A stretch of DNA of 64,000 nucleotides from Paraspadella gotoi (GCA_051294375.1 CM119264.1:2104481-2168480), one strand, 5' to 3'; counted from the first letter of the stretch, positions 12,541 to 60,766 are shown. Made by a program: numbers and translations. The notes: generated from the sequence alone by a model not told the origin.

Positions 12541-12629
12541 CGGAAAAAAATAAAAAAGGAGGCTCGGAAGAGAAACTGGCGCCTCGCAACGTCTCTCCCT
12601 CGGGGAGTTTTCTCTCCGCCGCTGGTGCG

Positions 12630-24900: not shown

Positions 24901-25895
24901 AGGCTTTAATTTAAAGCTATATGGTGTATTCTTAATTACTTATACTACAGGGCCACGACATGACTCCTCTCCGTCTCGACATGACGGCCAACGTCCGCCC
25001 GGCATCGCTTCGCGTTGAAATCTCCAACGACGACGGTCTGGCCTTCAACGCCCTCATGTCGGAGCTGCTTCCGCCGCCCTCTGATCCATCGGACGAACTG
25101 CGGTCCTTTTGCGGCGTCCGACGGCACCGTAGCGACTTCAACCTCAGCAATCATCAGGATTCAGTCCTTCAATTCGAGATCTCTCTCCCCGATCCTTTTT
25201 TCATCGCCACTTTTGACCCAAAGAGAAAGAAATCCTCCGCAGCCTCAGCCGCCGCCGCTGCCGCCGCCGCAGGCGGATCTTCGGCCAAATCTCGCAAGTA
25301 CGGGTTGCGTCCGTCGGAAAACGTTCAAGTCGCCGTCGGGTTTGAGATGAAGGAAGAGATTTTGAAAATCGCCGAAAGATTAAAAAGAGAAAAGGAAGAG
25401 GGAGAACCGTCCGCTCCCGACGGCTACCGTCTCGACGGAGCAGCGACGGAGCAGCGGCTCCTCATCGACAAATTCGCCAGCATCCTCTTCGACAACGGAA
25501 ACGTCCAACGAGTCCCCGTCCGCTGCGTCGTTCATCTCCCGAGGCTGGAACTTTCCGCGGATCGAATCGACTTTGGCGCATCCTTCGTCGAACAAGATTG
25601 CGAGGCGGAGGTTGTGCTGAGCAATCGGAGCCACTGCGACTCGGAGTGGCGCGTCACGAGGGTCGGGAGTGACGATGACGACGCTTTCGACGTGACGCCG
25701 AAAAGCGGACGACTTCTTTCCTTCGTCAGGGAGAGAAACTTTCAAACTCATCTGCGTTTTTCGTTCCGCGCGTCGGCAGCGCGAAGCTACGAGCGCCTCT
25801 TTCGTGTGGACGGGAGTTTGGGGGAGGAGACGCTCTACGTTAGGGTCATGGGGAAGGGAACGATGGACGAAGCTAATTTGGCGCTTTTTCAATAG
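18965..25895 (+). CDS. DLEC1: DLEC1/CFAP81 (ASH/Hydin-type Ig-like repeat ciliary protein), 6 exons: 18965-19135, 19500-20072, 20347-24456, 24647-24704, 24788-24858, 24951-25895; ~1975 aa
   Basis: Motifs HLKNPRF, F.ATPSEI.F.DF.VGRVYE..LEL.N, GLVAPGMNCYFTVRFAPD, KMTLVCDNC, AYNDMWGSYSD, VRFGGHVSG, GYALGFLSLD match my recollection of DLEC1. Exons join in frame. Confidence 0.85.
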
Positions 25896-30073: not shown

Positions 30074-30490
30074 CACGAGGCTCAGATCAGTGTTAATTGA
30101 GTTTTAGAGACTTTATTTTCGTCGATTGTACTTATTTTAATAAACTGGAAAAATTAAACCAAATTAAATTAAATTAAATTATCTGTACGAAAGTGTTCAA
30201 AATAAATAAAAACCGTTAATCTCACGATTAAGGAAAATTTAAATAAAGAAAAGACGCGATTTTTTTTTTCCTTGAAAATTGTTGATTATGCTGCAAACTA
30301 AATGAGTAATTCTGTGCGGTGTGGTTCTTTTACAAAAAAAATTATCCAATTATTTAAAATTTATTTTAATTTTAAAATTTTAGATGTTAACTCTGGTTCA
30401 AAAAACGATTATATCACAATATCCCGCTCTGGCAAGAGCCAATTAGAAACAAGAGACACCAGCCGAGTTGAAATCTGGAGCGCTGGCGAG

Positions 30491-30666: not shown

Positions 30667-33600
30667 ATGTCCAAATCCTTCAGCTCAATGCAATTCGAGG
30701 ACCCGTTCCGACCGGGCTACGGCCTCAGCAACTGGGAGGTTCCCCGTCGACACAAGGCCATGCCCGATAAGCGCGTGGGAAAAACCCAAGTGGTGGCGAC
30801 GGATCGCGGGCACCTCGTCCCCGGAGCCGCCCGTCGATCCTTGGAGAATCCTTGGGGCAACTTTCAAGGAACTTGGGACATGCCGACCAAGGTCAAAGGC
30901 GTGAGGAGCGACGTCACCACAGGTATGATATTCAATAATAATTAGATTAAAAGTAGAAAAATTTGACGAAAAAAAATATACCGGGCAACATCAGCGCGGT
31001 CCCTCTACGGCGTGGAGAAACTGCAGCTCCCCTCGCGGCCGACCAAGAAAACTCAAGAGTTGAAGGAAATGCAGAGGATGAACGAAGTCGTGAAACAAGG
31101 TGGCGCCGCTCGAGTCGTCAAGAACAACAGATTGGGTAAGGACTAAGGGCAACAACAACAACAACAACAACAGATTGGGTAATGACTAAGGGCAACAACA
31201 ACAACAGATTGGGTAAGGACTAAGGGCAACGAGTACATTTTTTTTAACCATGCAGTCTAAAATTTTCCTAATACTGTTGAGTTTCTAGTATAATTTTAAG
31301 TGCTTAAAACGATTAACAAGGTATCGACAATCGTTTAGTTGGCGTGGACTACAACATATAATTTTTCTTTTTACCACAACTGAAAAGTTAAGCAGTTGTT
31401 TTTTTTTTAACTATTTATTTATCCTGAAATTAGTATAAGTATATAAGACGCAATGCAAGCTAAAAGCTGAAAGAGAGTTCCACCGAGGCGAAAAAAAATT
31501 ATTGATTTTAGCCCATCTGAATATTTTTTTTTATTCCCTGAGTCTTTACAGAAGTTATCCTAAAAAATCTATGCAAAATTGTTACAGGCTATCGAGATAC
31601 AGTAAAATACAGTGAATAATTTAAAAATCCATTACCCATAAATATTATTGGAACTAAACTTTGCCATTGCGTAAAAAGTCATTTCGATCAATTTTTGTCA
31701 ATTTCTGAATTTCTGGCTGGGATTCTGTTTTCACATCTATCTTTTTTTCACTTTGACAAGGTACTTTTTTTTCAAATTCATTTTTTTTGTAAAAAAAAAA
31801 TAAGTCTTTCTTAATAACCTTTTGAATCATAATAACCACATATAGTTATAAGCGTTTTAAACCTAAAAGAAAAATTATATATTATCTATATTTTTTTAAA
31901 GATTATTTTTTTTACTGCAATATGCAAATGAGATTATTGCATTTTTAGCTTTTTATAATGGAGCATTTGGAAAACTTTTAAGAAATCTAACGCATGAGTA
32001 TGTGAGTATGTGATAAAGCTGGATATAAATTTTTTGATGGACTCGTAGGAGTGGAAAAGAGTTCAAATTAGAAAACCAAAAAATACATGATTTGATTTTT
32101 TTAAAGTTTCTCTCAATCTCTCTCTGATTGATTGATAGATTGAATGACCAAATTATGCCAATTGATAGAAATATGCCAGTTGACCAAATTCTGCAAGTTG
32201 ACCAAATTATGCAGTTGACCAAATTATGCCAGTTGACTAAATTCTGCAAGTTGACCAAATTATGCCAGTTGACCAAATTATGCCAGTTGACCAAATTATG
32301 CAGTGGATAAAATTATGCCAGTGGATAAAATTATGCCAGTTGACCAATTATGCCGGTTGACCAAATCATGTTAATTGACCAAATTATGTCAGATGACCAA
32401 ATTATGTCAGTTGAACAAATTATGTCAGTTAATCAAATTATGTCAGTTAAACAAATTAAGTCAGTTGACCAAATTATGTTATTGAGCAAATTATGTCAGT
32501 TGACCAAATTATGTCATTTAACCAAATTAAGTCAGTTGACCAAATTATGTCAGTTGACCAAATTATGAGTTACAGATTGAAATTGCAGTGACAATTAGTG
32601 CATGCAACATATATGCCAGTTAAATAGCTACAAATTGTATGACATAGCAGATACAAATTATGTCAGTTGAACAAATTATGTCATTAATTATGTCAGTTAA
32701 ACAAATTAAGTCAGTTGACATTTTACATAGTATGACAAATTATGTCATAACATAGTATGACTAAATATTTCAGTTGACCAAATTATGTCAGTTGACTAAA
32801 TTTTGTCAGTTGACCAAATTATGCCAGCTGACAAAATTATGTCAGTTGACCAAATTATGCCAATTGACCAAATTATGCCACTTAATTATCGTAGGCAGAT
32901 CCGACATTGTTTGCTCCAACCTGTTTAATGAAAATGATAATTATATTTTTGCATAAAAAATGAAAATTTAAAAAAATGAAAAACATCAGATTTGGCCCAA
33001 AATAATTATCTCCAATCTGATGTTTTTAGAAATACAAAATGTTTGCTCTTTTCTTTATTCTTAATTATGAACAAAAAAATTCTGCTCTTTTTCAACTAAA
33101 AAATTCAATTATTTTAATAAATAAAAATGCCCTGTCTTCAAAGTTGTACGTATTTTTATTCCAAATTAATCATGGATTATCATAAAAATATAGATTTATG
33201 GCTACTACCCTCCAAATCCATGGGTCTTTTTGTAGAAAAGACATCAGGGCAAAAAAGTCAGGTCTATATGAAAAAATGATAAAAAAAATTGATTTGGACC
33301 AAGGCTCATTCATAATTATGTTTTTGCATAAAAAATAAAAATATCAAAAAATAAAAAACATCAGATTTTGCGCAAATTGATTACCTCCAATCTGATGTTT
33401 TTAGAAATGCAAAATGTTTACGCGTTTTCTTTAATTATAATTATGAACGCAAAAAATAATATTTTCGAAAAACTGGAAAATTCAATTTTTTTATTAAAGA
33501 AAAATGTCCTATCATCAAAGTTGTGCATATTTTTTATTCAAATTTATCATGAATGATCACAACAACATAGATTTACCACCCCTCATTTACTACCCTCCAT

Positions 33601-34228
33601 TTTCGTTTTTTTTCTCATAACAAAGCATCAGTACAAAAAAGTGAAATATTTGATAAAAAGTAAAAATCTGTTTGTCAGTCCAAATTTCTGATATATTAAT
33701 TGATTATGAACAAGCCCTGATTCAAAATTGTCGCAAAAAATATGTAGAGGTAAGGGCTTGGTCTGCTCTAACAGAATATGTATTAAAAATGCGTTTTTTA
33801 AACCATTTTGTGACAGTACCATAATTTCGAAAACATATAGTAAAAAAATTTGTCACACTTTTTTTCATATTTTTTTCTACTTTGTTAACGATTGGACCTT
33901 GTTAATCTTCTCACAGGGAAATGACGGTCCTTCACATTGTAACTGAACCTTCTGAGTACCAAATGGCTGCATAATTGATAATATTGGGTAAAGGAGTTGT
34001 CTCTGAGATCAATAAATTGGTGCAAAAGTAGGCTGAAACTCCCTTTTAGCTTTTATCTTGCATTGCGACATAAGTATTCAAACAAAAAATACTTGAATCG
34101 ATATGAAACATGTGATTTTAATTGAAGATGAGAAGCTGTATCTAAATTTTCAGCTTCCTAAAAATATACATTTACAATTTATAATTGTAAAAAAAGCGTG
34201 ACAACGACGACGTTGTTACAAAGAAGCA

Positions 34229-34261
<33 letters not shown>

Positions 34262-37200
34262 TTAAAAACAAAGTAAAAACAGGTACTTCATAAAAAATAA
34301 GAATATATTTCTCCCTCTCTAAAATATGGAATCTTGGTGAATGGTGATGCAAATTAAGGACGCATACAAAATATCAAAATTAACACCTTAGTAAATAATA
34401 TAAAAATGAACAAAGATATTAAGGCACTAGATCCCCTTCTCAACAATGAACAAAAAAGATCACTGCGTTCGGCACTGAGCGTTTCCATCCCCATCTTCGC
34501 CATTGCGTACATCAAGATCGTCACTGCCGACGTCACGATCGTCATTGCCAACGTCAAGATCGTCATTGCCGACATCTGGACCCGAAACGACGTTTTGTTT
34601 ACGATAGTCTTCGAGCTTCTCGTACTGGACGGACTTGTCGTGCCTCTCGATGATTGGTCGAATTTCGAAATCTCCTCTTCCTCCTTCCTCCTTCACCTTC
34701 CCCAACAAATACTCTATCTTCTCCTTATCCTTCCTCGCTCTCTCCTCTTGCCTCCTCTTTTGCGCCTTGTACTCCAGCACGGCCGCCTTCAACTCCTTAT
34801 CGTAGTTCTGCTGCTCAACCAGATTTTGTTTCAAATCCTGCGCCTCCTTCTTCGCTTGCTCCAATTCGTACTCCGCTCTGTCTCGCGCCATCGACGCCAT
34901 GTTGAAGGTGATGCGGTTAACGACGCCGGATCCGCGAGAGGCCGAGTAGAGAGCCTCCATGGATATGCAGCCGCCCTTGCAGCAAGTCTTGTAGCCGGCT
35001 TTGAGCGGCTCCGGGAGTTCCGGCGGCGGCGATGGCGGCGGCGGAGCGGTTGCGGTCGGAGCTTGGGACGATTGCATCGAACCCACGAAGGTTCCGTCCA
35101 GCGCTACTTGTGACTGCAATGCTCGGTGCTGCTCCTTGACCCGTTTGATCTCTTGATTTTTAATCTCTATCTGAGTGTTCATGTGGCTGACGGCGTCGGA
35201 TGTATCCTTTTGAGCCGATTTCAATTCCTTCTCCATCTTTTGAACGGCGTGATCTTTAGCCAAATTTTCTCGTTTCGCGTCTTCCAAAGATTGAAGGCAA
35301 ATCTCCAGTCGTTTTCCTTTCTCCATCATTTCTTGTTTGAGTTTCTCCACTGATTCTCCGCCCCCTTGTTCTTTCTCACGCTCCCGTTTCTTTACTAGAA
35401 CGGCCACGAGCTTCTCGTGCTTGGCCTGTAGCTCTTGATAAACGGAGGTCAACCTGATGCCCTTTTGGAAATACTGATCCGCGGTCTCTTTGGACTTTTT
35501 CAATTCTTCCTCCAATCCCTCGATTCTTTTCTTAGATTCTACCAGTTGGATGCCCAACTCTCCGGTCTCGATTTCTCCATCCCACCATTTGTTCTCCATC
35601 TCCCTGTAATCTTTGCATAGCATATTGTAATTTTCACTGGATCTCTCGACTTCAGCGCGCAAGGATTCCAGCTCCGTTTTCTCTTTTGTCAAAGTGGATA
35701 CCTTGCACTCGAGGATTTTCTTCTCTTGTGCGACATTATCGAACTCTTTTTCCAACTCGGACGCTTTTTGAGAATAAAAGTCTTTTTCTTTTTCAATCTC
35801 TTGCTTAGTTGCCAATTGAGAGAGATAGTTTTCGATCTGTTCTTCCTGATCCGCTTTTTGTTGTTTAACGAAATCAAGTTCTTCCTTAACTTTGTTCAAT
35901 TCAACTTGTAAGCAAGAAATCTTGACTTCCATTTCTTTAACCAATTCGCTCGAGCGTTCGTTCATTATTAGTTCTAGTTGATCTTTCTCTTGTTTCAAAA
36001 TATCAAACTCATCATTCAATTTATTTAACTCGGAATTATACGATGATGCTCTCATGTCAGACTCTTGAACTAAATTGTCATAATCACGTTTAATCTCTTG
36101 ATATTTATTACTAAATTCAATTTGAAGATTAGCTTGCACTGACAATTGCGACTGATATTCCTTTATTTGTGCATCTTGTTCAACATTTTGCCGTTTCACA
36201 AAATCAAGTTCAGTGTTAGCATTACTTAATTCCAATCCTAAACATGCAATGTTTTGACTCATTTCTTCGATACAATTATCGGAAACTTGCTTTTGATTTT
36301 CAGTGTCTTTTAATACAACACACTGCGCAGTTAACTGAGAAGAATAATCTTTTAATTGTTCATCAAGAATAATCTTTTTTTGCTTCATATAATTTATTTC
36401 TTCATTTACCTCGTTTAACCTTTTTTTCAAATCAATTATTTGTTGTTTCGCATCTTCAGCATCATTCCTAAGTTTATATTCAACCTGCTCAAAATCTCTA
36501 TCTTTATCTCTCAACAGATTTGTCTGAGCTGTTAATTTAGCAGCATATTCCTTTATTTTCTCCTCTTTCAGGGCCTCTTGTTCTTTTAGATTATTGAATT
36601 CATCATTTACTTTTTTCAATTCAACTTCTAATGTTGATAACTTTTTACTCATTTCTACAGGTTTCCCCAGAGCATTAAGACTTTTTATTTCCTCATCCTT
36701 ATTTTTTAACTGAACTGTTAAATAAAGACTTTCTTCTTTTAAACGAGTTTGTTCCATGTTTAATATATTTATTTTATTGTGAGCTTCATTTAAGTCTTTT
36801 TCATATGACATAATATTTATCTCAGACTCACGGGCTAACTTATCAAATTCTTCTCTAAGATGATTTAAATTTTCATCTTTATCTTTTTTCAACTCTGACA
36901 ATTCTACATAATATACGTTCATTTGTCTTTCTTGATCGCTTTTTTGTTGTCTTTCTAAAACAAGCTCGTTGTTAACATGGCTCAATTCACCTTCTAACAA
37001 TACAATCTTTTCTTCCATTTCTTTTGGTATTTTACTTAAATGTTCATTAGCGTGTTGCTCCTGTATGTCCTTTTCTTGTTTTAAAACATCAAATTCAGCG
37101 TTTAGCTTAATTAATTCCCCTTGATAAACCAATGCTTTTTCATCATTTTCCTTTGACATAAGTAAGACATTCTTTAATTCTTGATCTCTATCTTTCAATT

Positions 37201-40200
37201 GATTTGTCTGCGCATCTAATTTAGCTGAATAATCATTTATCTGCTCTTCTTGAACAGATTGCTGTTGTTTTAAATTATTGAATTCGACATTCACTTTGCT
37301 TAATTCTTCTTCTAATTTTGATAATTCTTTTTCATAAGTTAATATTTTTATCTCAGACTCACAAGCTAAAGTGTCATAGTCGAGCTTCAGACTGGCAAAA
37401 TTATCATCCTTCTCTTTATTAATCTCACATTGATCTGACAATTTTTCCTGATATTCCTTGATTTGTTTTTCTTGATTAGCTTTTTGCTGATTTACCAAAT
37501 TAAGTTCATTGTTAACTTTGCTTAATTCCATTTCTAGCAATGTAGCTTTGTCTTCCATTTCTTTTGACAAGTTACTAGAATGTTCAAGATCATGAGTCTC
37601 CTTATGGGCCTTCTCTCGGGCTAAAATTTCAAGTTCAGCTTTAACTTTATTCAATTCAGCTTGTTGCAATAAAGCCTTTTCATTTGAATCATCGGCCAGT
37701 TTTTTCGTATCTACAAACTTATGTCTAATATCTTCCAATTCTCCATCTTTAACTTTTAACAATTTGTTTTTAGTTACTAACTGAGCGGAATAATCGTTTA
37801 TTTGTTCTTCCTTAGCGGCATCTTGTTGTCTCAGGTCATTAAATTGATCGTTCATTTGATTTCGTTCTATTTCCAACGTTGATACTTTTTTATTCATCTC
37901 TTCAGATGATTTATGAAATGCCATCCTAAGATTTTCTATTTCATTATCCTTATCTTTTAACAAGTTAGACTGAACAGTCAATCTGGAAGAAAATTTTTGT
38001 CTTTCTTCTTCTAGAAAAGCTTGTTCAGAGTTTAATCTTTGAATTTGATCTTTTGCTTCATTCAAGTCTTTCTCAAAAGACGAAATCTTAATCTCTGATT
38101 CACGGGCCAAAATTTCGCGTTCTATTTTTAGATTTTCTAGACGACAATCTTTCTCTCTTTCAATCTCAGACTGATCGGACAATTTAGATTGATATTCCTT
38201 CACACGTTTTTCCATATCATCTTTTTCTTCTTTCATAACTTTAAGTTCCCGGTTAACTTTGTCCAATTCCGTTTCTAACAGAGAAACTTTGTCTTCCATA
38301 TCTTTAGATTGTTTACACGAATTTTCATACATAAATTCGTCTTTTTCTCGCTTTAAAGTTTCGAGTTCCACCTCGACTTTTTTAAATTCAATTCCACGAG
38401 ACGCTTGTTTTTCAATCGCTTCCTTGTACATCAATGCAAGATTTTCTAATTCAATATCTTTATCCTTCAAAACCTTCGATCGATCTGTCAGCCTCGCATT
38501 CATTTCGTCCTCTTGAAGAGAATTTTCTCTTTTAACAGAGTGTAGTTCACGCTCCATCTCTTCCAGTTTCAATTCAAGCGAACAAACCTTTTCATTCACA
38601 TCTTCGTTGAGCTGACGATCAGCATTCTCATGGTCACGCCGATCGGACGACTTGGCCGCGTATTCCTCTATTGTTTTCTCCATTTTGGATTTTTCTCGTT
38701 TGGAGATTTCCAATTTAGCCATCACGCTGCTTAACTCCTCCTTCAAGGAAGACGCCTCATCCACCAATCGCGCAACGAGACTCTCCGACTGGCGAAGTCG
38801 ATCGTCGACGTGCTCCTTAGTGGTCTTAGCTTCTTCCACGAACAATCCTTCCCACGCCGACTTTTCGTGCAAACAAAAACTCTTCTCCGCCCACTTGCTC
38901 GTCAACTCCCGATTCTCTTCCCTCACTCGCTCCAACTCTTCCTTCACTCGCTCCATATCAAAATCCTCTCGATCGGCTAGCATCTCGTGTAGCTCGTCGT
39001 TCTCTCTCTCCAACGCCGTCGCCCGCTCGACGAGCTCTCGCTTCTCCGCCTCGACGCGATCGTTATCGCCTTGGAGAGTCTCGCAAAGATCCGCGTACTC
39101 GGCGCACTTGACCTTCATTTCCGAGAAATCGGCCGAAGGCGGTCGAGGCGGCGGCTTGAGCGCCAGGTTGTCCTCGCTGACGGTCTTGCGCAGCATCGTC
39201 TCCCGCGACATCCGCTCCTTGATGGTGCAGAGCTCGCGCTCCAGCGTCGCGATGGCCAGATCCTTATCCAACAGCTCGTCCTCCAATTGACGAAGACGGG
39301 ATCGATTGTCTTCGTCATCGACGGACGGAGGATCGGGCAGCGGCGAATAACGAGACGTGACGATTTCGTCGCCGAAATTGACGCGTTTCGCCCGCTTCGC
39401 CGAAGACGACGGCGCCGCCGCGGTCTCCTGCGGCTGCTGCGGAAGAGTGTTCTTCCCACTCAGCTGCAGACTCGATTTGATGGCGCTGGACGAGAGGTTG
39501 CTGCGTCGCGCGGGTGGACGGAGTCTCGTCGTAACGAAAGCGGATTGAGGACCGGAACGAACGAAGGCCGTCGACGGAGTCGCGCAGGGTGTGTCCGAAG
39601 GCGCCGGCGCAGAAATTTGAGAATCCTCGAGAAGAGTCGGCGCCGCAGCGGGATCGGCGCCGCAGCGAGTAAGAGTGAAGGACGGATAAAAGGAGGAGCG
39701 GCGCCGGAGATTTTTGCCGCCTTGACCCGGCGCCCAAGTCTCTCGTCGACGAGCGCGGGTCTTGAATGCGCTGGGTTTGGGGGCGGCGTTGGAGGCCGAG
39801 TCGAGAGAGTGGATGAAGAGCTTCTGGAGTTTCTCGAGGGCACGTCGTTGTTCCTCGAGGCGTTCGTCCTTTTCCGTCATTTTGCGTTCGTGTTCTTCTC
39901 GACGTTCGGAGTCGGGCTGCACGGGTAAGGGAAGGGATGAACTTGTTAACAGGGGGAAAATAAAGAAAAAACAGAATAGCGAATTTTTATATTTGTTTTA
40001 AGGTCCGGGATCACTCAATTCAAATTATAATTAGCCTAAAACCGAGCTCGGATTTCGAAAGGAGAGCTCCTGACGATTCCGAAAATGTATTCACTTTACT
40101 ATTTTTTCAAAGGCGTCATCGTTTTTTGATTTTTTTTGTACTATATAAAATAAAAGAAACCTATTTGAAGAGTTGCAGCCCAAACGGTAAGGCGGTTTCT

Positions 40201-43200
40201 CATAAAATTTGGCATGAATTACTTTTAGGTCACTAACTCAATTCTATGAAAAGATATTTTCAAAATTTGCCTTCCTTCATATAAAATTTGATTATTTTAA
40301 TCAATTTTTGGGATTAATTCCTTGATATCTTTGAAACGAAAAACATTTTTTCAAAAACGCGCTCATAGAATCTCCCCCACCTTTCCTTTCTTGCCCAAGA
40401 TATTTTTTTTCTTCAAGAAGAGTCCAATGGTTTGAGCTGCAACTCTTCGTTTTTAACTTCACTTCGTCAAGAAAGTTAAATTCTGTACTCATTAAACTCA
40501 TTAAACATTTACATAAAGTAAAAAGTCAAATTGAAATAAATTCGATAAGTTTTTTAACTCATAAAACTCATGAAAGTATAAAAAACCGTCTGGAAAATGT
40601 GAAGAGTAGTTTGTTTTAGACTTATTAGTTATACAACCCCATGTATGTACTTGTACCAAAGGAAGAATTAAATATAAGAAGTAGAAATTGAGCTTACTGT
40701 AAAGAATCAGTTTTAAGTTAAAAATTTAGTTGTAGAAATTTAGCTTACATATAAAAAAATAATTTTCTCTTGAAAATCTAGTTTTACCGAAGAAAAAAAT
40801 TTTGTTTAAATTTTATGAACATTTTAGGTAGATTTTTAAAAGTTTTCGAATAATTTTTAATAGAAAACCTCTTACAGGATATGAGAAAATGATTAAGATA
40901 CAGTAAATTAAATTTCTACAATTTTAGGTTGAGTGATCCCTGGCCTTAACAATTTCAAAGGGGAGAAAAAGAGAAAACTGCGGAGGAATCAAAAAGGATT
41001 GATAAAAAATAGAGGATGAGATGGGTTCAAAGAGAAAGCGTGAGAAAGAAATAGTGAGAGAAAAGAAAAGTGTGAAAGTAAAGATAGTGAATACTACTAC
41101 TAAATAGTGGTAAATATTTCACATGGGTAGAGAGACACACGCTCAGAAAACCATTAAAATAAATTTGAAGGAACAACTACCGTCCTACATCGACAAAGAA
41201 ACTCAACACGAAACCATCCCCCACTAACCCTCTACTGACACGTGACTCAAACAACTAATCCAAAAAGGACAATTTATGGTTCCTAGTGGAACCGGGATTC
41301 TTTATGGTTCTTCCCCACCAACAAGTGAGCATCTGCTCTGCAAAAGAGAGATCAGTGGTCTTTTAATACAACACACTGCGCAGTTAACTGAGAAGAATAA
41401 TCTTTTAATTTTTCATCAAGAATAATCTTTTTTTGCTTCATATAATTTATTTCTTCATTTACCTCGTTTAACCTTTTTTTCAAATCAATTATTTGTTGTT
41501 TCGCATCTTCAGCATCATTCCTAAGTTTATATTCAACCTGCTCAAAATCTCTATCTTTATCTCTCAACAGATTTGTCTGAGCTGTTAATTTAGCAGCATA
41601 TTCCTTTATTTTCTCCTCTTTCAGGGCCTCTTGTTCTTTTAGATTATTGAATTCATCATTTACTTTTTTCAATTCAACTTCTAATGTTGATAACTTTTTA
41701 CTCATTTCTACAGGTTTCCCCAGAGCATTAAGACTTTTTTATTCCTCATCCTTATTTTTTAACTGAACTGTTAAATAAAGACTTTCTTCTTTTAAACGAG
41801 TTTGTTCCATGTTTTATATATTTATTTTATTGTGAGCTTCATTTAAGTCTTTTTTCATATGACATAATATTTATCTCAGACTCACGGGCTAACTTATCAA
41901 ATTCTTCTCTAAGATGATTTAAATTTTCATCTTTATCTTTTTTCAACTCTGACAATTCTACATAATATACGTTCATTTGTCTTTCTTGATCGCTTTTTTG
42001 TTGTCTTTCTAAAACAAGCTCGTTGTTAACATGGCTCAATTCACCTTCTAACAATACAATCTTTTCTTCCATTTCTTTTGGTATTTTACTTAAATGTTCA
42101 TTAGCGTGTTGCTCCTGTATGTCCTTTTCTTGTTTTAAAAATCAAATTCAGCGTTTAGCTTAATTAATTCCCCTTGATAAACCAATGCTTTTTCATCATT
42201 TTCCTTTGACATAAGTAAGACATTCTTTAATTCTTGATCTCTATCTTTCAATTGATTTGTCTGCGCATCTAATTTAGCTGAATAATCATTTATCTGCTCT
42301 TCTTGAACAGATTGCTGTTGTTTTAAATTATTGAATTCGACATTCACTTTGCTTAATTCTTCTTCTAATTTTGATAATTCTTTTTCATAAGTTAATATTT
42401 TTATCTCAGACTCACAAGCTAAAGTGTCATAGTCGAGCTTCAGACTGGCAATTATCATCCTTCTCTTTATTATCTCACATTGATCTGACAATTTTTTCCT
42501 GATATTCCTTGATTTGTTTTTCTTGATTAGCTTTTTGCTGATTTACCAAATTAAGTTCATTGTTAACTTTGCTTAATTCCATTTCTAGCAATGTAGCTTT
42601 GTCTTCCATTTCTTTTTGACAAGTTACTAGAATGTTCAAGATCATGAGTCTCCTTATGGGCCTTCTCTCGGGCTAAAATTTCAAGTTCAGCTTTAACTTT
42701 ATTCAATTCAGCTTGTTGCAATAAAGCCTTTTCATTTGAATCATCGGCCAGTTTTTTTCGTATCTACAAACTTATGTCTAATATCTTCCAATTCTCCATC
42801 TTTAACTTTTAACAATTTGTTTTTTAGTTACTAACTGAGCGGAATAATCGTTTATTTGTTCTTCCTTAGCGGCATCTTGTTGTCTCAGGTCATTAAATTG
42901 ATCGTTCATTTGATTTCGTTCTATTTCCAACGTTGATACTTTTTTATTCATCTCTTCAGATGATTTATGAAATGCCATCCTAAGATTTTCTATTTCATTA
43001 TCCTTATCTTTTAACAAGTTAGACTGAACAGTCAATCTGGAAGAAAATTTTTGTCTTCTTCTTCTAGAAAAGCTTGTTCAGAGTTTAATCTTTGAATTTG
43101 ATCTTTTGCTTCATTCAAGTCTTTCTCAAAAGACGAAATCTTAATCTCTGATTCACGGGCCAAAATTTCGCGTTCTATTTTTAGATTTTCTAGACGACAA

Positions 43201-46200
43201 TCTTTCTCTTTTTCAATCTCAGACTGATCGGACAATTTAGATTGATATTCCTTCACACGTTTTTCATATCATCTTTTTCTCTTTCATAACTTTAAGTTCC
43301 CGGTTAACTTTGTCCAATTCCGTTTCTAACAGAGAAACTTTGTCTTCCATATCTTTAGATTGTTTACACGAATTTTCATACATAAATTCGTCTTTTTTCT
43401 CGCTTTAAAGTTTCGAGTTCCACCTCGACTTTTTTAAATTCAATTCCACGAGACGCTTGTTTTTCAATCGCTTCCTTGTACATCAATGCAAGATTTTCTA
43501 ATTCAATATCTTTATCCTTCAAAACCTTCGATCGATCTGTCAGCCTCGCATTCATTTCGTCCTCTTGAAGAGAATTTTCTCTTTTAACAGAGTGTAGTTC
43601 ACGCTCCATCTCTTCCAGTTTCAATTCAAGCGAACAAACCTTTTCATTCACATCTTCGTTGAGCTGACGATCAGCATTCTCATGGTCACGCCGATCGGAC
43701 GACTTGGCCGCGTATTCCTCTATTGTTTTCTCCATTTTGGATTTTTCTCGTTTGAGATTTCCAATTTAGCCATCACGCTGCTTAACTCCTCCTTCAAGGA
43801 AGACGCCTCATCCACCAATCGCGCAACGAGACTCTCCGACTGGCGAAGTCGATCGTCGACGTGCTCCTTAGTGGTCTTAGCTTCTTCCACGAACAATCCT
43901 TCCCACGCCGACTTTTCGTGCAAACAAAAACTCTTCTCCGCCCACTTGCTCGTCAACTCCCGATTCTCTTCCCTCACTCGCTCCAACTCTTCCTTCACTC
44001 GCTCCATATCAAAATCCTCTCGATCGGCTAGCATCTCGTGTAGCTCGTCGTTCTCTCTCTCCAACGCCGTCGCCCGCTCGACGAGCTCTCGCTTCTCCGC
44101 CTCGACGCGATCGTTATCGCCTTGGAGAGTCTCGCAAAGATCCGCGTACTCGGCGCACTTGACCTTCATTTCCGAGAAATCGGCCGAAGGCGGTCGAGGC
44201 GGGCGGCTTGAGCGCCAGGTTGTCCTCGCTGACGGTCTTGCGCAGCATCGTCTCCCGCGACATCCGCTCCTTGATGGTGCAGAGCTCGCGCTCCAGCGTC
44301 GCGATGGCCAGATCCTTATCCAACAGCTCGTCCTCCAATTGACGAAGACGGGATCGATTGTCTTCGTCATCGACGGAGGAGGATCGGGCAGCGGGGAATA
44401 ACGAGACGTGACGATTTCGTCGCCGAAATTGACGCGTTTCGCCCGCTTCGCCGAAGACGACGGCGCCGCCGCGGTCTCCTGCGGCTGCTGCGGAAGAGTG
44501 TTTCTTCCCACTCAGCTGCAGACTCGATTTGATGGCGCTGGACGAGAGGTTGCTGCGTCGCGCGGGTGGACAGTCTCGTCGTAACGAAAGCGGATTGAGG
44601 ACCGGAACGAACGAAGGCCGTCGACGGAGTCGCGCAGGGTGTGTCCGAAGGCGCCGGCGCAGAAAATTTGAGAATCCTCGAGAAGAGTCGGCGCCGCAGC
44701 GGGATGGCGCGCAGCGAGTAAGAGTGAAGGACGGTTAAAAGGAGGAGCGGCGCCGGAGATTTTTGCCGCCTTGACCCGGCGCCCAAGTCTCTCGTCGACG
44801 AGCGCGGGTCTTGAATGCGCTGGGTTTGGGGGCGGCGTTGGAGGCCGAGTCGAGAGAGTGGATGAAGAGCTTCTGGAGTTTCTCGAGGGCACGTCGTTGT
44901 TCCTCGAGGCGTTCGTCCTTTTCCGTCATTTTGCGTTCGTGTTCTTCTCGACGTTCGGAGTCGGGCTGCACGGGTAAGGGAAGGGATGAACTTGTTAACA
45001 GGGGAAAAATAAAGAAAAAACAGAATAGCGAATTTTTATATTTGTTTTAAGGTCCGGGATCACTCAATTCAAATTATATTAGCCTAAAACCGAGCTCGGA
45101 TTTCGAAAGGAGAGCTCCTGACGATTCCGAAAATGTATTCACTTTACTATTTTTTCAAAGGCGTCATCGTTTTTTTGATTTTTTTTGTACTATATAAAAT
45201 AAAAGAAACTATTTGAAGAGTTGCAGCCCAAACGGTAAGCGGTTTCTCATAAAATTTGGCATGAATTACTTTTAGGTCACTAACTCCAATTTATGAAAAG
45301 ATATTTTCAAAATTTGCCTTCCTTCATATAAAATTTGATTATTTTAATCAATTTTTGGGATTAATTCCTTGATATCTTTGAAACGAAAAACATTTTTTCA
45401 AAAACGCGCTCATAGAATCTCCCCCACCTTTCCTTTCTTGCCAAGATATTTTTTTCTTCAAGAAGAGTCCAATGGTTTGAGCTGCAACTCTTCGTTTTTA
45501 ACTTCACTTCGTCAAGAAAGTTAAATTCTGTACTCATTAAACTCATTAAACATTTACATAAAGTAAAAAGTCAAATTGAAATAAATTCGATAAGTTTTTT
45601 AACTCATAAAACTCATGAAAGTATAAAAAACCGTCTGGAAAATGTGAAGAGTAGTTTGTTTTAGATTATTAGTGATACAACCCCATGTATGTACTTGTAC
45701 CAAAGGAAGAATTAAATATAAGAAGTAGAAATTGAGCTTACTGTAAAGAATCAGTTTTAAGTTAAAAATTTAGTTGTAGAAATTTAGCTTACATATAAAA
45801 AATAATTTTCTCTTGAAAATCTAGTTTTACCGAAGAAAATTTTGTTTAAATTTTTATGAACATTTTAGGTAGATTTTTAAAAGTTTTCGAATAATTTTTA
45901 ATAGAAAACCTCTTACAGGATATGAGAAAATGATTAAGATACAGTAAATTAAGATTTCTACAATTTTAGGTTGAGTGATCCCTGGCTTAACAATTTCAAA
46001 GGGGAGAAAAAAGAGAAAACTGCGGAGGAATCAAAAAGGATTGATAAAAAATAGAGGATGAGATGGGTTCAAAGAGAAAGCGTGAGAAAGAAATAGTGAG
46101 AGAAAAGAAAAGTGTGAAAGTAAAGATAGTGATACTACTACTAAATAGTGGTAAATATTTCACATGGGTAGAGAGACACACGCTCAGAAAACCATTAAAA

Positions 46201-48874
46201 TAAATTTGAAGGAACAACTACCGTCCTACATCGACAAAGAAACTCAACACGAAACCATCCCCACTAACCCTCTACTGACACGTGACTCAAACAACTAATC
46301 CAAAAAGGACAATTTATGGTTCCTAGTGGAACCGGGATTCTTTATGGTTTCTTCCCACCAACAAGTGAGCATCTGCTCTGCAAACGCGACATCTCCCAGA
46401 GAGAAAACGAAAGAGGAAACCTCCTCTTCCCGCCTTCTTTCCCCCTCCCGTACGCTACCTCAGTACGCCGACACGAGACAGAATCACTCGTAACCAAGCA
46501 AACCAAGAGGGGGGAATCCCGCGGACTTCCGGTGACGTGCCACGCCCACTTGACCGGACGTCGTAGAAGGGGGGGATGAGAAGCCCGAAAAAGAACCAGT
46601 CCATGGACGAAAACCGGGTCTGGAGAAACTGACGGCCGGACGAAGCAACGGCCGAAAGAGCTGTCGGGCGATCAGTTGGCGTCCTTGACGTCCCTGGAGT
46701 CCCGCCCCTACGCTTGGGAGGCGGCGAAAACTTGCGAGGCCAGTAGGGACGGCGAGGCGAGAAGCGTCAGCGACAGAAAGGACAGTATGAGCGGAACGCT
46801 CCGGCGTCCCTCATGATGCTTCAAAAAGCCTTGAAAGCGCGCGTCGTCTTGGAGTCCTTCCGAACGGCGTCGAACTGAGCGGCAAGGCAACTCTGAGCAG
46901 GAGGACAAAATCCGCCGGCGAAGAGACATCCGACCAGCGCCGGAAACGCGTATAGGCGGAAAGAACGTCCCACGACGGTAAAGAACGTCGTCCTGGCCAA
47001 CTCTGCGCAAAACCCTCCACTGCTGTAGGACCCACTCCGAAGGCTGTACAGAAGCACGACGAGACAAGAAGTTGTCCAACCCCGCAGCAGAAACGGAGGC
47101 GTCGTCGTCGACTTGCGCAGATGGGGCTCGACGAGGAAGGCGTGACGCAGTCACCCGCTCGGAGCGTGAAGGCCGATCCGCCGCCGAAGAGGCCGCCAAG
47201 AACGCGAAGACTCCAAGTCGCTGGCGTACAAAAGACGACGAAGAACGGCGAAATGGCGAACAGAGGCGTCCAAGAACCATGAAGAAAACGTACATGGAAA
47301 AAAAGAGAATCATTGAAAAATGACAGTCTCAAAAAAAGAACCCAAAAAAACACCCCACACAAACAAGACAAGCGAGCCTGAGCCGCCCTCCACCACCGGT
47401 GGTGCCAGGGGTGGACGGTGGTGGTTGTTGGTGGGGAAGAACCATGAGAAATCCCGGTTCCACTAGGAACCATAAATTCTATCATGTAGTTCTTCCCCAC
47501 CAACAAGTGGCCTGTAACAAGACCAGGCAAAGGCCCGACAAAAAACAAACAAACAAAGTCGAGTTAGGTGGGGCAAGGAGGAAAACCCCTCTGTACGCCG
47601 AAATGTACGCCAAAAAAAGGCGAAAAACAAAAACGAAAAGAAAGAAGAACTCACCGCCGAAGACTCTCCAATTCGGAACGAGACGAGCGGCGAAACCTCC
47701 CTAAATTCGCGACGAACGCTAGAAAGAGCGTTGCTATTTGAGAACTGCCTCCATCTGAAGGGGCATGACTTCGGCCTGACCAAGAAAAGCCCGGAATGGC
47801 TGATGGTGGAGGCGGTGGAGGCGGCGGCGAAGGCGGCGGCGGAAGAGACATGAGGGTAGTCGAGTTGAAAACACGCGCCTCAGTCCAAAAAACGGAGAGC
47901 ACTGGACAAACAAGGGGGCGAAACAAGGTTCTTCCCCCCAGCAGCCGTACTAAGCGCCGTGGGCAAACGAGAGAGGCCGAGTCGCGGCTCTTCCCTCCGC
48001 ACCGCGCAGGGTGCGTCGAGGGCAAGCGAAAGGGCCGAGTCAAGGCTCTTCCCCCGAAGCCACGCACAACGAAGACGAAAAAAGATGGCGGCCGTGAAGA
48101 GAAACTTCAAAGCCACGTGTCGAAGAATATCTGTATTCTGAACTCCAAAAAAAAGGAACGAAAAATATGCAAAATTATTCAAAAAATAATCAAAAAATAT
48201 TTTCGTAAAAAGCCGGGAGACTGTGAGCGCAAAAGCGCGAACAGAAGAAGTGATTCTGTCTCGTGTCGGCGTACTGAGGTAGCGTACGGGAGGGGGAAGA
48301 GAAGGCGGGGAAGAGGAGGTTTCCTCTTTCTTTTTCTCTCGGGAGATGTCGCGTTTGCAGAGCAGATTNNNNNNNNNNNNNNNNNNNNNNNNNGCTCACT
48401 TGTTGGTGGGGAAGAACTACATGATAGAATTTCCACCACCCCCCTCCTCGCCGATAAAAACCAACCCCTTCCCTCCACTTCGCCCAAACAAAAAAAAAAA
48501 AACAGACCGTTTGCGCTTCGGCGTTTCTCTCCTTCTCCATTTCCGCTAATCTTTCTTTCAGCTTTAAAATCTCCTTCGTTTTCCGTTTGAGCAAAACTTC
48601 GTCCGAAACGAATTCGTTGACGTGGGCGCTGTTCTTGATTTTCTTGCAGTTTAGTCCGAACCTAGTTTAGGGGGAAGGGTGGGCGTCTCTAGATAAAAAA
48701 CCGAAGAAAAATAACACGAATCGCTCCCCCGAATTTTCTTTCTTCTCACCCTTTTTCCCCATGAAAGACAATCAAGACAAGCGAGACAATCATATCCATT
48801 TCCTTTAATTGATTGATTAATTCATTCATTCTTTCAACTTCCTCGCACCGTCTCTCCCATTAATCGCGTGATCG

Positions 48875-48924
<50 letters not shown>

Positions 48925-51900
48925 ATTCCACCTCAACGTATTCTTTGTCTCCTCGACGGAGGCGGGCGTGACGGCGCAAATCACGGCCGTCCTCGAATTC
49001 CCGCCCAACGAGTCTTTCAAAATTCGGGTGAGTTTCGAGTTTCGGTAAGGAACGTGCTGCTGCTTTCGCGGATTGGCCGCGTTCTCCGAGAGAATCTCGA
49101 TCACGCGGGTCAAGTCAGTTAATGATTGGTTGATGTTGACGCCCTCGCGAAACGTCTCCCCCTTGGATCCTGTCTTTCCTAGGGATGATAAATAATAATA
49201 GTGATAAATAATAATAGAGATAATTAAATAATAGTAAAAACGATGACAAACCACAAACCCGTTCCTTTTTGCGCTTTCCTAAATCCCTTTCCCACTCACC
49301 CGGCTTCTCCGATCCGGCCAAATCGACGAGGTTCATGATCGACCTCCTCACGGCGCCCGACTCTTCGCTCCCGCGGTCTTGACTCTCCAGCGTGAGAGTG
49401 AATATGGTGTGAGACCTCGAGCTCCGGTTGTTCATCACGGTCTCGGCGAAATGGCGACGTCGCTCGCCCTCCTGATCGAAGAGAGTGAGGAAGAGTGAGG
49501 AAAGTTGTGAAAAAGTGAAGATGAAGAAAGGAGAGGAAAGAAAGAAAAATAAAGAAAGGTTATAAAAAAGAAGGAAAGCAGTGGTGAAGTAAGGAGGTTG
49601 CGATAAAGGTGATACGGGAGTGGGTACGGAGAGAAAGTGAAATTGGATAAAATATGAAGAGGAGGTGATTAAGATTAAAAAGTGTGAGGAAGAGAAGAGA
49701 GAAAAGAAGAGAAGAGAAGAGAAGAGAAGAGAAGAGAAGAGAAGAGAAGCGGAAAGTTGACATGGGAGGACGAAGACGAGTCACTCGGTCACACTCACAC
49801 TCACAGGGAGTAAAATTTGAAAAAGATGAGTCCCCTTCCTTCACTCCCCAACTCCTCTAAACAAATGCTTCCACAAACCTGTTTCTTAGCATAGATCTCC
49901 TCCTCGGACGTGACAAAGGCCGACTCGACGCCTTCGATGAAGGTCCGCCCTTCTTCGTCCTCCCTCACGGCGAGATCGTCGACGCGATTGGACGCGATGT
50001 TGTTGGAGGAGGAGGAGGAGGAGGAGGAGGGGTCGACGAGGAGATCGCGAACTCGATCCTCGTAAATCTCGACGTAGGTGACGCTGAAGATGAAATGTCT
50101 GTCGATGGGGAAAAAAAAAGGGGGGGGGAAAGAGGACTTTGATTATATCTTGACGATTGAGCGAGGATGGGTTATGATGGGTTAAGACAGTTTAAGGTTT
50201 TTATCCAAAAAATCAATCTATTTGATAACATTTTAAAAGATTTATTCAAATAATTTCTATAATAATAATAATCAGTGAAAACAATTTTAAAATCTACTTC
50301 GCGCATGCACAAAAACAGACTCGCTCTCTTTATCTCTCTGTCGAGCAAAGCACCTTCTAACTAGTAGAATCTTCGTAGAATTTCAAAACCACAATAAACA
50401 CCACAACCACAAGACCGCAAGACAACCTGTTGACGGATTCGTCGATCCGCTGGAAGACCCGATGAACGATGAGAGGAATGACTCCCGGTTCGTTGGCGTC
50501 GCCGCTCATCGTGTGCGTCTTGCCCGACGAGGTCTGCCCGTAGGCGAAGACCGTGCAGTTGAATCCCTCGAAGAAATCGTCGACCATCGGGCGGACGACG
50601 TCGTCGAACACGTCCTGGGTCGAGCTCGTCATGCCGAAGACTCTGCGATGATAAGGCGATAAGTAATGATGAAAATAAAGTAAAAAAGAAAAAGGAATTC
50701 GTAGGTGAAATTCGGCAAATAAAACTAATAGGAAACAGTGAAATAAAAATGAAACGTAATCATTACATTACTACAATATGCAAATGAGATAGAGAAACTA
50801 GATCTAATTAATAAGGCTTAATTTCTTTACCTCCTTTCCTTGGCATGGTAAAATCCCTTAACCATTCCCTCTCTTCTCCACATCCCTACCGATCGTAGCA
50901 ATATTCCTGCGCTGCCGGATTCGTAGGAATAATCTTCTTCGTCGTGGGATCGATTTGCTTGATGAACCAAGATTCGCTTCCTTCCTTTTCTTTCCAATGA
51001 AGTTGCGCGTTCGTCTTTTTCTCGCGAGGAATGAGGGGACGGATTCTGGGGGGGGAGGGGAATGAGTGAAAAGAAGGGGTTGAAAAGGGTTGAGAGAATG
51101 GAATAAGGGGAAGGGAGGAAAGTGAGGGAAGGGGCAAAAAGAAGGAGAGAGACGGGTGGCGATAGGGGAAAGGATGGAGAGAGAGAGAGAGAGGGGGAGG
51201 AAGAAAAATAGAGAGGGGGAAAATAGGAATGAAAGAAGGAAAATATAACGATAATTTTAATCAGAGCGAAATTAAGTAGAGGTCAAAAGAATTAATCCTC
51301 ACTTCCTTCATAGCGATTTTCACAATATCAATTTTCTCACACCTGACCGCCGTGATGATGGTGTGAGCCTTCTCGTTGTTGACCGCCATCGTCTCGATCG
51401 TCGTCGAGGAGTCATCCAACTTTGTTTTCTTTCTGTTCTGATGTTTTTTTGTTTTTTTCTAAGGGAGGTTTTGTTGTTTTTGTTGTTTTTTTAATTTTTT
51501 TTTAAATTTTATTTGAGGCCGGCAAAAGTTTTTATGGCAGTTTCATCGCAGTTTTATAAGTTTGTTCTTTCATTCGAGGATTCTGTAAACTATAATTGTA
51601 TAATATATTACATATGTATATGAAAAAAAGACCGGGGTTTCTTTCCACTCATGAAAATTGTATAATTCGGCTCATTTTCAATTTGGTATAATTTGGTATA
51701 AGCGAAAATAAAATTTAGCCGCTAATGAAATATAAAGAATTGAGAAGTTATCACAGATCTTAAAGTCCGCCTATCACGACGACCATATCAAAATCTCGCG
51801 CGGGGAGCCTCAGTCGAGAAACATGAACCTGACGGTGCTGATCCTGGCGCCGCACAAGTGGCAAAGGGTCAGCTTGGCGGCGCAGCGGCGGCAGGCGACG

Positions 51901-54900
51901 TGGCCGCAGTCGAGAACGGCATCCTTCTTCTCGTCCATGCAGATGGAGCAGCGGAGTCGATCCTCCAGATTCTCTTTTTCCCGGAGAAGATCGTCGACGA
52001 TCTCCTTTTTCTCCTCTCGCTTCTTCAACGAATCCGCAAGGCGGTTGTTGTCCTGCTTCAGGCGGTCGTTGTCCTTCGTCAGTCGATTCTTTTCTTTTCC
52101 CAGGCGATTCTTATCCTCCACAAGACGATCTCGGTGTTTTAGCAGGTATTTCTTGTCCTCCACCAGTCGATCTTGGTCTTTTGACAGGCGATTCTTGTCC
52201 TCCGAGAGGCGATCGTTGTCCCTCATCAAACTTTTCTTTTCCTCCAACAACTTTCGACACTTTTCCCTCAATGTCTGATTTTCCTCCTCGACCAGATGGC
52301 CGTTATCTTTCGACAGATTGTCGTTGTCCTTTGACAGGCGGTCGTTGTCCTTTGTCAGACGATGATTGTCGTCTCTCAAACCTCTTTTCTCCGCCGTCAA
52401 CTTTCGACACTTTTCTCTCAGCATCTCCATATCCTCCTCCGTCTGGAAATCTCGTTCGCGTTTGCGTCTCTCGATGTTTGCGTCTTTTTCGTCCACGAGA
52501 TGGACGGTGCGCCGATGCGACTCAGGAGGCGTCAGTGGCACCACGACACGGACCGTTCTTTGATATCGAGAAGGATCTTTGGTCTGCGGCACCGGCTCAG
52601 GAGGAGGTTTCACCCGCGTCTGTTTCGCCAGTAGCGGCGTCGTTGATCTTTCTTCTTTTCCCGCCGTAGCGCCCGTCGCCACGTGGAACAGGGGTTTGGC
52701 CGGAAGACGGGTGAAACGATTTCCCAAAACGAGGCTCCGATTCTTGGGATAATCCGCCATCCTTAGCTCTTCTAGGGATTTGTTCTCGTACTTTTTCATG
52801 ACGGAGATGCACTGGAATTTGACGAGCCCGCTTTGCACTTGGTCACCGATCATTGACACGTCGGACCCAGACACTGGTTCGAATTTGGTCGGCGTTCCGA
52901 GCGGATAACAAAATAGGAGGCCGCCCGGGCGGGGGTCGCCGTTGGAGGCGGGATAGTTCATTAATCGTTTGACGGTAAAAGGAGAGAAAAGATGAACTAA
53001 TGAAAAAAATATAGATTTAGGTAAAAAATAGTTTTAATCGACTAGAAATAGTTTAAATTTTAAAATAGGGGGGGGAAATCTGAGCAAGGCAAGGGGAAAG
53101 ATAAAAAAAAGTGGTGGTCAATAATAATTGTCTTTTCATAGGGTAAAGGAAAATGATGGGGGCTAATAATGGCAAAAACGACCAGAGGAGAAAAATAATC
53201 TTAAAAGTATAGTGATATCGTTTATCGCCAGACGTTACTATCAAAGAAAATTAACGAAAAAATCTTAAAATCACAATGATCCATCGCTCCATCTCGAACA
53301 AAACCTCGTACTTTATAAAACCGGCTAATAAACAAATGATTTTTCCCTTACAAAGTTTTTATTCGTTACCGAATTCCGATCGAATAAAAAAGTTAAGAAT
53401 ATTTTTTCAACGGAGACTTTCTTTCGAATCTGACTACCAAACTTATGATGCGATGATAACAAATTAGTAATGTGTTGATAACAAATTATTGATGCGATGA
53501 CAAATTATTGATGGGAAAATGTTCAAAAAATGCAATGAAATGAATTGAATGAATGAAATGAATGAATTGAATGAAATGAATAAATGAGTGAAATACATTT
53601 AAATTTATTTAATTAAAATAAATGAAAGAATTGAGATAATTTTAAATTTATTTACTCAATATAATTTACTTATCAACTAAATTAATTAAATTCAACGAAT
53701 TTAATTAATTAAATTTAATTAAAGAAATTGAATGAATAAATATATATATATATATATATATAAATATAATGGATATTTTTATATTGGTTGTACCAATTTC
53801 ATAAAATTCATCTCCTTGTATTTTGATGCTAGTGCGGAGTACAATATAGTATTCCCCGATCTAATACTTAAGGGAGTGGTCTTTTCATACAATTGAAACA
53901 TTCTTTGAAATATTATACCACTTCATTGATAGGAAAGCCAGGTTCACTGGGAGTGAATAAATAAGACTGTGAGATAGTCTTGATTGAAAGCTTGCAGAAA
54001 CCTGCTATGTTATTATCTTGTAAGTGTGATGGAGGCCTTAAACCACCAAAGCCTGTCCAAAGTCAGGGACAAGATAGCTTATTTATTAAATGAATGGATA
54101 ATTTTTATATTGGTTGTACCAATTTCATAAGAAAGAAGGAGATATAAAAAACAAGAGAAACGATGGAAAGAGAAAGCGGTTTTAAAATTATAACATGCGC
54201 GACTGCGACAATTAACATCATGAGTTCGAACCTCATAACTTTTTTGGATAAAAAACAAAGAAAAAGAGAGAGAAATCCAGCCGCTGCAGAGCTGAACTCG
54301 TTTTTAGACGAATCAGAAAAAGAAAAAAAGAGAGAGAGAAAGAACGACATATATTTAAAATGTAATTCATAATTTGTAGTAGTTTTTATATAATAATTAT
54401 TTTGTAAATAAAACAAACAAATCCGAGTATTGATATGAAACATGATAATTTCAAAACTATATCTAAATTTTAGCTTCCTAATTGTAATTCGTAGTAGTAG
54501 TGACGACGACGACAGTAAACGATTATCTTCGCCCAAGAGATAAAAAAAATGATTAATTACAGGATAAGTAAAGAGCCTTATAAAAATAATAATTGCTTAA
54601 ATTTTATTAAGTTAAAGAAAAGAAAAAAATTCTATGTTGTAGTTAACGTAAACTTCCGGTCATTTGTGCTTGGATCAAACGAAAAATCTGATTGTCGACA
54701 CCTTGTTAATCGTTTTATATGAGAAACTGAACAGGATTGTGAAAATTTTCGATTGCATGGTTAAAAAAAAACAGTATAGCAACGAGTAATGGTTAAAGGA
54801 GCTATGGGTACGTGCCCAGAAGGATGGGGCAGCCTAGGGACGAGGGGTGAAGAGCAAATTGTCGGAGTTTTCATGATTTCCTTTTAAGATCACGTGACGG

Positions 54901-60710: not shown

Positions 60711-60766
<56 letters not shown>

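Follow-up and report, generated by a model that had tools for sequence, protein, structure and literature searches.

Compound transposons that carry whole genes are already known from animals, namely from Drosophila and amphioxus. In Branchiostoma belcheri, a duplicate of tesD (Bb-b-SDR) is a whole gene flanked by two copies of the same family of elements with terminal inverted repeats (TIRs), Zator-1, is accompanied by target-site duplications (TSDs), and is described as inserted in a 3′ untranslated region (UTR) and in an intron of other genes (PMC12905397). Ising's TE of Drosophila, a composite flanked by foldback elements, mobilised a large host segment with whole genes between two TIR elements (PMC6431247). 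For Arabidopsis, a hybrid Pack-CACTA model has been put forward, in which host DNA becomes enclosed by two directly oriented copies whose inner ends are lost (PMC6379663), and KolobokP is an animal element of composite layout with direct repeats at both ends (PMC9587614). Host sequence inside non-autonomous TIR elements is reported as Pack-TIRs in animals and Pack-MULEs in plants, where full-length genes are called "exceptionally rare" (PMC8277862, PMC6431247); the commonest carrier of animal Pack-TIRs is hAT (208 of 370; PMC8277862). Here, a comparable block was analyzed in a 64,000-nt stretch of Paraspadella gotoi DNA (GCA_051294375.1, CM119264.1:2104481-2168480; the window). It occupies intron 2 of the ciliary gene Flattop (CFAP126), carries a CENP-E-like kinesin gene and a GLEBS-RING gene, and behaves like a cut-and-paste TIR element. 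On balance we favor, by a modest degree over even chances, its reading as a compound (macro) transposon of the cut-and-paste type, bounded by two ends of one inverted-repeat family.

The block extends from position 31234 to 54778 and comprises 23,545 nt, or 18,504 nt if the second copy of an internal 5-kb duplication is left out, which reproduces the sizes of 23.5 kb (assembled) and ~18.5 kb (real) given in the preliminary description of this DNA. The 64-kb window has exactly two occurrences of the 10-mer GCAACGAGTA, which start at 31226 and 54779. Two random positions of the flanking DNA share an 8-mer with a frequency of 1.5e-4. The left TIR (31234..31432, + strand) is a rare variant without the CTG of the family end TACACTG and without an internal segment of ~31 bp. 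The right TIR (54554..54778, − strand) is the common family variant and ends with A9-CAGTATA. When 31238-31432 (195 bp) was aligned with the reverse complement of 54554-54770 (217 bp), 153 of 181 aligned bases were identical over 231 columns, with a score of 176 compared to at most 46 in 100 shuffles. The imperfect inverted repeats of ~200 bp described before were therefore recovered at both ends.

The left end has the sequence GCAACGAG-TACA-T8; the right end, when reversed, gives TATACTG-T9. Since the left end has lost its CTG, three parses of ends and duplication are available. The preferred one has TA...TA ends and an 8-bp TSD, GCAACGAG, at 31226..31233 and 54779..54786 (both + strand), and requires no more than that a TA follows the right copy by chance (the frequency of TA is 0.05). 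A TA duplication with CACTG ends would require a pre-existing tandem 10-mer; such 10-mers were found at 0 of 2117 TA sites of the flanking DNA without simple repeats and at one site with them, yet the intron is prone to duplication. A 10-bp TSD, extending to 31235 and 54788, would require that the left end has lost TA as well. Thus, the 10-bp direct repeat reported earlier is perfect and restricted to two sites, but as a TSD it is probably 8 bp long, with boundaries at 31234/54778 rather than at 31236/54778. Just outside the right duplication, the flank (54787-54797) repeats nine bases of the TIR (ATGGTTAAA), which may be due to chance, target preference or filler DNA.

The earlier, tentative assignment to the Mutator superfamily was not supported. 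The family end TACACTG(T)n gives a duplication of 8 bp (TA...TA) or 2 bp (TA, with CACTG ends), and no parse starts with G. Mutator termini are G...C, whereas the ends of the block read TA or CA under every parse. The repeat lengths of 195 and 217 bp correspond to the long TIRs of Mutator and Pack-MULE elements, and a 10-mer of suitable size is there, although a duplication of 8 bp is more probable in view of the family end. For MULEs, duplications of 7-12 bp and TIRs of up to 300 bp have been reported (PMC10741241). For hAT elements, an 8-bp duplication and C/TA...TA/G termini (PMC6913007) as well as short TIRs of 5-28 bp (PMC10741241, PMC6913007) are given; Zisupton likewise makes 8-bp duplications (PMC12730594), and the classification of non-autonomous elements relies on the length of the TSD and on the bases at the termini (PMC4455052). 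The block has the 8-bp TSD of hAT on the preferred parse, at this one locus, and hAT-like termini (TA at 31234 and 54777-54778; family consensus TACACTG), but its inverted similarity of ~200 bp is not that of short hAT TIRs. A CACTA/EnSpm or Tc1/mariner parse is suggested by CACTG following TA in the family consensus, but it needs the tandem 10-mer that was seen at none of the 2117 TA sites, in an intron that is itself prone to duplication. As judged from the terminal bases, the ends are more likely hAT-like than those of a Mutator element with a 10-bp TSD, and the block is not filed under any superfamily here.

The locus is present in nine public runs of the same organism (six samples, three studies). 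Contigs of five of the 11 listed runs were compared with the junctions at both ends (X1, X5, X8), at the left end only (X9) or at the right end only (X6). X1 belongs to a different study from X5 and X6, and X5 and X6 are termed RNA-like solely because their contigs skip introns. The ends of the block belong to a repeated family, as the preliminary description had suggested, with at least 12 other ends in other flanks in the one run X1. In this run, 12 contigs extend before 31238 into unlike flanks (agreement 0.51), and have a consensus ending in TACACTGT (family end TACACTG(T)n); three X5 contigs agree loosely with it. The summed X1 depth at the outer left end was 26,131, compared to 90 in Flattop, and at the right end 10,171 (at 95% likeness), compared to 93 in the flank. 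At five sites, the letters of the window's left end account for only ~78-300 of a summed X1 depth of 5,400-16,900. The left and right ends look like derivatives of two different copies or variants, in line with a likeness of only 84% between the internal segments X and X′ described below. No match to the TIR patterns was found in metagenome contigs or in viral contigs. None of the 51 non-cargo open reading frames (ORFs) of at least 55 aa in the block has a Pfam match, consistent with the non-autonomous nature stated earlier. The block is presumably immobile at present, given a left end without CTG and without the internal segment.

The host gene is intact. Flattop exon 1 (30667..30922, + strand; Pfam PF22611, E 4.8e-25) is followed by an intron (30923-30994) that is spliced in X5. 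Exon 2 (30995..31135, donor GTAAGG at 31136), exon 3 (54889..55026) and exon 4 (about 55616..55824, acceptor at 55616 or 55622), all on the + strand, were modeled, and the joined four-exon model is identical to the homologue P0003 in 159 of 250 columns. One of the RNA-like X5 contigs stops exactly at 31135 and the next begins at 54888. These breaks fit a splice from exon 2 (ending with G) to exon 3, because they match its predicted branch points exactly. Intron 2 measures 23,753 nt as assembled and, after removal of the block and one repeat, exactly 200 nt with GT..AG borders, as had been claimed. Flattop likely survives the insertion, since the cargo lies on the opposite strand and would be removed with the spliced intron. 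The donor region of exon 2 is triplicated in tandem (31119..31230, + strand; units of 34-43 bp) and runs into the left duplication. At this donor junction, the protein has four extra residues (NNRL) that are absent from P0002-P0004, P0156 and P0157. The triplication is possibly a repair scar beside the end of the element. A Flattop alignment search of metagenome contigs gave one locus out of 65 candidates, which on inspection was a chance match. Flattop intron 3 is covered at high depth by RNA-like contigs (54888-55400), perhaps as the 3′ UTR of an opposite-strand gene; YB-1 is located at 57470-61535.

Both cargo genes described before were found to be complete. The CENP-E-like kinesin gene (34460..51389, − strand; Pfam Kinesin) consists of eight GT-AG exons (1 to 8: 51343-51389, 50890-51045, 50427-50642, 49879-50098, 49300-49471, 48932-49178, 48508-48661 and 34460-39916) and encodes 2222 aa without an internal stop. 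Its last exon of 1819 codons encodes a long coiled-coil tail, for which no relative was found among 7975 candidates scored. CENP-E was the best PDB match for three of the four kinesin exons tested (exon 5 by 7.5 bits, the neck with E 0.0026, exon 3 by less than 1 bit) and KIF18A for exon 6. On these similarities, the protein is likely CENP-E (kinesin-7), a gene that we take to be essential from what is generally known of kinesin-7. Exons 1-3 are spliced in X5 and X6.

The second gene (51810..52961, − strand) is an intronless ORF of 383 aa with a Nup98-type GLEBS motif, a heptad coiled coil and a C3HC4 RING domain (PF21240, E 2.8e-12; PF13920, E 7.5e-8), in line with the chimeric E3 gene reported earlier. 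The RNA-like contigs cover it with one silent difference. It lies 420 nt upstream of the kinesin ATG and shares one spliced RNA-like contig with kinesin exons 1-3; the length of this contig agrees with splicing into exon 4. The two genes may share a transcript, although a contig with both genes does not show a single transcript. The predicted role of the protein is to bring Rae1 or Bub3 to an E3 ligase. A homologue search gave a single weak match, through repeats only. In the best 150 of 634 representatives, the best stretches fell on GLEBS, coil or RING and none of them spanned GLEBS to RING, although several representatives had more than one stretch. A viral origin was considered and found unsupported, as all Atlas matches were below 0.9 and viral contigs held no relative. 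The GLEBS-coiled coil-RING gene is regarded as an orphan and may be lineage-specific.

Cargo positions 51176-53251 form one unbroken X1 contig with a depth of 95, compared to 90 and 93 in the Flattop flanks, and no near-identical parent copy was found in X1 at 95% likeness for the ~2.5 kb of cargo covered. Cargo at flank depth with no near-identical parent evident points to relocation rather than duplication. The kinesin gene, if CENP-E a motor gene of chromosome segregation, thus appears to be present in this animal as a single copy. The term "Pack", which implies a copied fragment, is accordingly doubtful for this block, whose anatomy fits two fused copies.

Segment X (34071..34211) and segment X′ (54405..54513), both on the + strand, are homologous in direct orientation, with 91 of 108 aligned bases identical (84%). 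Their score was reached by none of 500 block shuffles in direct orientation, compared to 70 of 500 in inverted orientation. X′ lies beside the right TIR. X adjoins the left TIR once a nested AT-rich element of 2.6 kb (31447..34069), with an 18-bp minisatellite and 350-bp direct repeats, is removed. Several family contigs cease matching at 31446-31447, and the 2.6-kb segment has inverted ends of ~35 bp of its own with ATAA on both sides; it is therefore regarded as a second, non-autonomous element nested at the inner edge of the left TIR. Without it, the layout is TIR-X-[kinesin, RING gene]-X′-TIR. Together with ends of two variants, this layout is the signature of two tandem copies that have lost their inner ends and move the block between them.

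Under the compound reading, two short non-autonomous copies would have inserted to the left and right of the kinesin and RING genes, both with the same orientation, and would then have lost their inner ends. A transposase supplied in trans would then have excised the whole block at the two outer ends. It would have been pasted into Flattop intron 2 with a duplication of 8 bp, and the donor copy would have been lost, so that the genes were moved and not duplicated. The observed host DNA between two copies of one family, with a single outer duplication, is what defines a compound transposon. More tentatively, and with somewhat less than even confidence, this transposon may have cut the genome's only CENP-E gene and its GLEBS-RING neighbor from their ancestral locus and become fixed in the intron of a ciliary gene. 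Of the statement in the preliminary description that the element moved both genes, the TIR-bounded block with whole genes in Flattop intron 2 stands, whereas the movement itself is inferred.

Several observations weigh against the compound reading. Neither an empty site nor a donor site was seen in the run contigs compared, and the TIR motifs occur only at the two outer ends of the block, with no remnant of inner TIRs found, a loss expected under the hybrid Pack-CACTA model (PMC6379663). Among the contigs listed, none bridges the left junction, where they stop at the triplicated donor (~31140-31152), or the repeat-rich link between the cargo and the right end (53251-54392). The exon 2-exon 3 splice is suggested by contig breakpoints, with no joined read displayed, and an X6 contig runs through 54888 without a break. 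Single-copy depth was examined in one run, for ~2.5 kb of the cargo and at 95% likeness, and summed contig depth is not equal to copy number. The depths of X5 and X6 are near-identical; the two may represent a single data set, and the window itself may come from either of them. In addition, most single-copy animal Pack-TIRs are described as having arisen without transposition (PMC8277862).

The last point leads to another sequence of events, unlikely but deserving attention, in which a short TIR-X-TIR copy inserted in the intron and made the duplication, and the two-gene block entered later without transposase, either by ectopic recombination at X with a circle or another copy, or by break repair. 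Most animal Pack-TIRs present as single copies are reported to have arisen in this way, the breakpoints lying within the element (PMC8277862). Direct X and X′ would also be left by integration through X, a circle route having been proposed for KolobokP (PMC9587614), and recombination between two copies would equally yield ends of two variants. Gap filling, however, copies its template and leaves a parent, and X1 shows no such parent at 95% likeness; a circle opened between two complete copies would be expected to carry inner TIRs along, and none is seen; and more than 15 kb with intact introns far exceeds the sizes reported in the sources cited. A single Pack-MULE that made a 10-bp duplication, captured both genes and jumped is improbable. 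It would account for the perfect 10-mer at two sites only and for the long TIRs, MULE duplications of 7-12 bp (PMC10741241) leave room for 8 bp as well, and a Drosophila case, Ssk-FB4, is on record (PMC8277862). For a 10-bp duplication, however, the left end must have lost TA in addition to the CTG of TACACTG, the ends are from different variants, and X is repeated directly. The block also does not start with the G usual for Mutator ends.

The assembly itself raises the question whether Flattop holds just a short repeat element, from which the assembler jumped via repeats into the kinesin locus and back. The region 41353..46393 (+ strand) is a second copy of 36300-41352. Between the copies there are 12 substitutions and, in addition, 42 indel events (39 of 1 bp, 33 in homopolymers), and copy 2 is frameshifted. 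Because these differences correspond to the error pattern of unpolished long reads, the second copy is likely an assembly artefact. A 25-N scaffold gap (48369-48393) follows within the right inverted repeat of a DIRS1-like element, and both the gap and the breakpoint of the duplication lie within the inverted repeats of this element. The duplication and the gap inside the block, and the repeat-rich links to the cargo that no listed contig bridges, speak for a misassembly. We nevertheless consider it quite unlikely: two reciprocal misjoins would be required, X and X′ are only 84% alike and thus not a collapse point, and the sole gap is inside the kinesin, whose frame runs from exon 7 through exon 8. 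Moreover, in X5 the left-end variant of the window continues into the nested element (31325-31499), and the right end is connected with X′ and with the flank. The right junction, including end, duplication and flank, is bridged without differences in X5 (54393-54917) and X6 (54392-55400). Of the two junctions in the preliminary description, the right one was thereby found outside the assembly, whereas the left one was bridged by none of the contigs listed. An X1 contig of 5972 nt starts at 54763 in the A-run of the right end and is unbroken through the duplication with a depth of 93; it holds only 16 letters inside the element and was not counted as a bridge. Since an empty allele would break this contig at the duplication, none branches off in X1 at the right junction. 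An empty allele in X8 and X9, which have none of the window's left-end letters, was considered and dropped, because neither run covers 30196-30282 and the right junction is thinly covered in X8. Finally, the genes could have come to be nested in Flattop by another route, the two ends being independent insertions. In so common a family, ends near any gene are expected, and the start of the intron is prone to local duplication. This we regard as highly improbable, given that an exact 8-10-mer adjoins both ends on the outside, that neither inner side shows a second duplication, and that 0 of 2117 flanking TA sites lie in a non-simple tandem 10-mer.

Further repeats were annotated within and around the block. 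The DIRS1-like element (46311..48432, 2.1 kb) in kinesin intron 7 has inverted ends and an internal region (47425-47509) complementary to its left start and right end (48 of 54 and 36 of 36 bases). This region sits in the middle of the element and not near the 3′ end (definition of DIRS: PMC8969392). None of its 24 ORFs has a Pfam match, and no ORF for reverse transcriptase or tyrosine recombinase was found; the element is non-autonomous at best. In the right arm, a very high-copy repeat of ~0.38 kb (53747..54130, + strand) begins and ends with similar 38-bp sequences in direct orientation. Its 3′ end is sharp, many contigs ending at 54128-54130. Partial copies lie at 10621, 19162 and 26142, and it is possibly a SINE, TRIM or Penelope-like element.

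The window as a whole is animal DNA, as YB-1 matches human and zebrafish Y-box proteins, and a Pfam search also identified an SH3-SH2 kinase fragment, a DLEC1-like gene and a SUMO-like gene. No Rfam match was found in it. The DLEC1-like ciliary gene (20332-25895, + strand) includes one exon of 1380 codons. With this exon and that of the kinesin (1819 codons), large exons seem common in the window. Two short palindromic stretches (10234-10411 and 61611-61767) are MITE-like, and a 92% direct repeat (1-334 and 11532-11862) adjoins a second 25-N gap (11889-11913) and is probably another assembly overlap.

If the relocation is real, a transposase would have moved a single-copy, presumably essential animal gene, creating a nested gene and breaking synteny in one step. 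What would set the case apart is that a sole, likely essential gene changed its place. Such a relocation would also lend support from an animal to the hybrid route via two copies that has been suggested for Pack elements of plants. The movement of intact, intron-bearing genes and the origin of nested genes are usually inferred after the traces have vanished; here ends, duplication and internal direct repeat can still be read around two working genes. A literature search found no sole or essential animal gene moved by a pair of TIRs, with the restriction that the supplement of PMC8277862 may contain whole-gene cases.

Among the closest known systems is Bb-b-SDR. There, both flanking elements are described as whole, the cargo is a near-identical duplicate that gives antisense RNA, and the insertion is polymorphic with a 3-bp TSD (PMC12905397). 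The block has no inner ends left and encloses two intact spliced genes, and neither a parent copy nor an empty allele was seen. The mobility of Ising's TE was reportedly observed in laboratory stocks. That element spans hundreds of kb and was seen to be mobile (PMC6431247), whereas the block measures 18.5 kb and looks fixed and dead. The hybrid Pack-CACTA model predicts the order TIR-X-cargo-X′-TIR found here, but it was described for a plant, with CACTA ends and 38-2137 bp of enclosed DNA, and the jump of the hybrid itself was not caught in that account (PMC6379663). Pack-TIRs and Pack-MULEs are reported as copies with a parent elsewhere and mostly as fragments, Pack-MULEs being mostly 1-2 kb in size (PMC8277862, PMC6431247), in contrast to the whole genes with no parent seen in the block. 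KolobokP, as described, has whole LTDRs with short TIRs of their own, its own transposase, TSDs of 3-5 bp and no host genes (PMC9587614). The Flattop block differs from these systems in its two intact spliced cargo genes, apparently without a parent, in its lost inner ends and in its apparent fixation.

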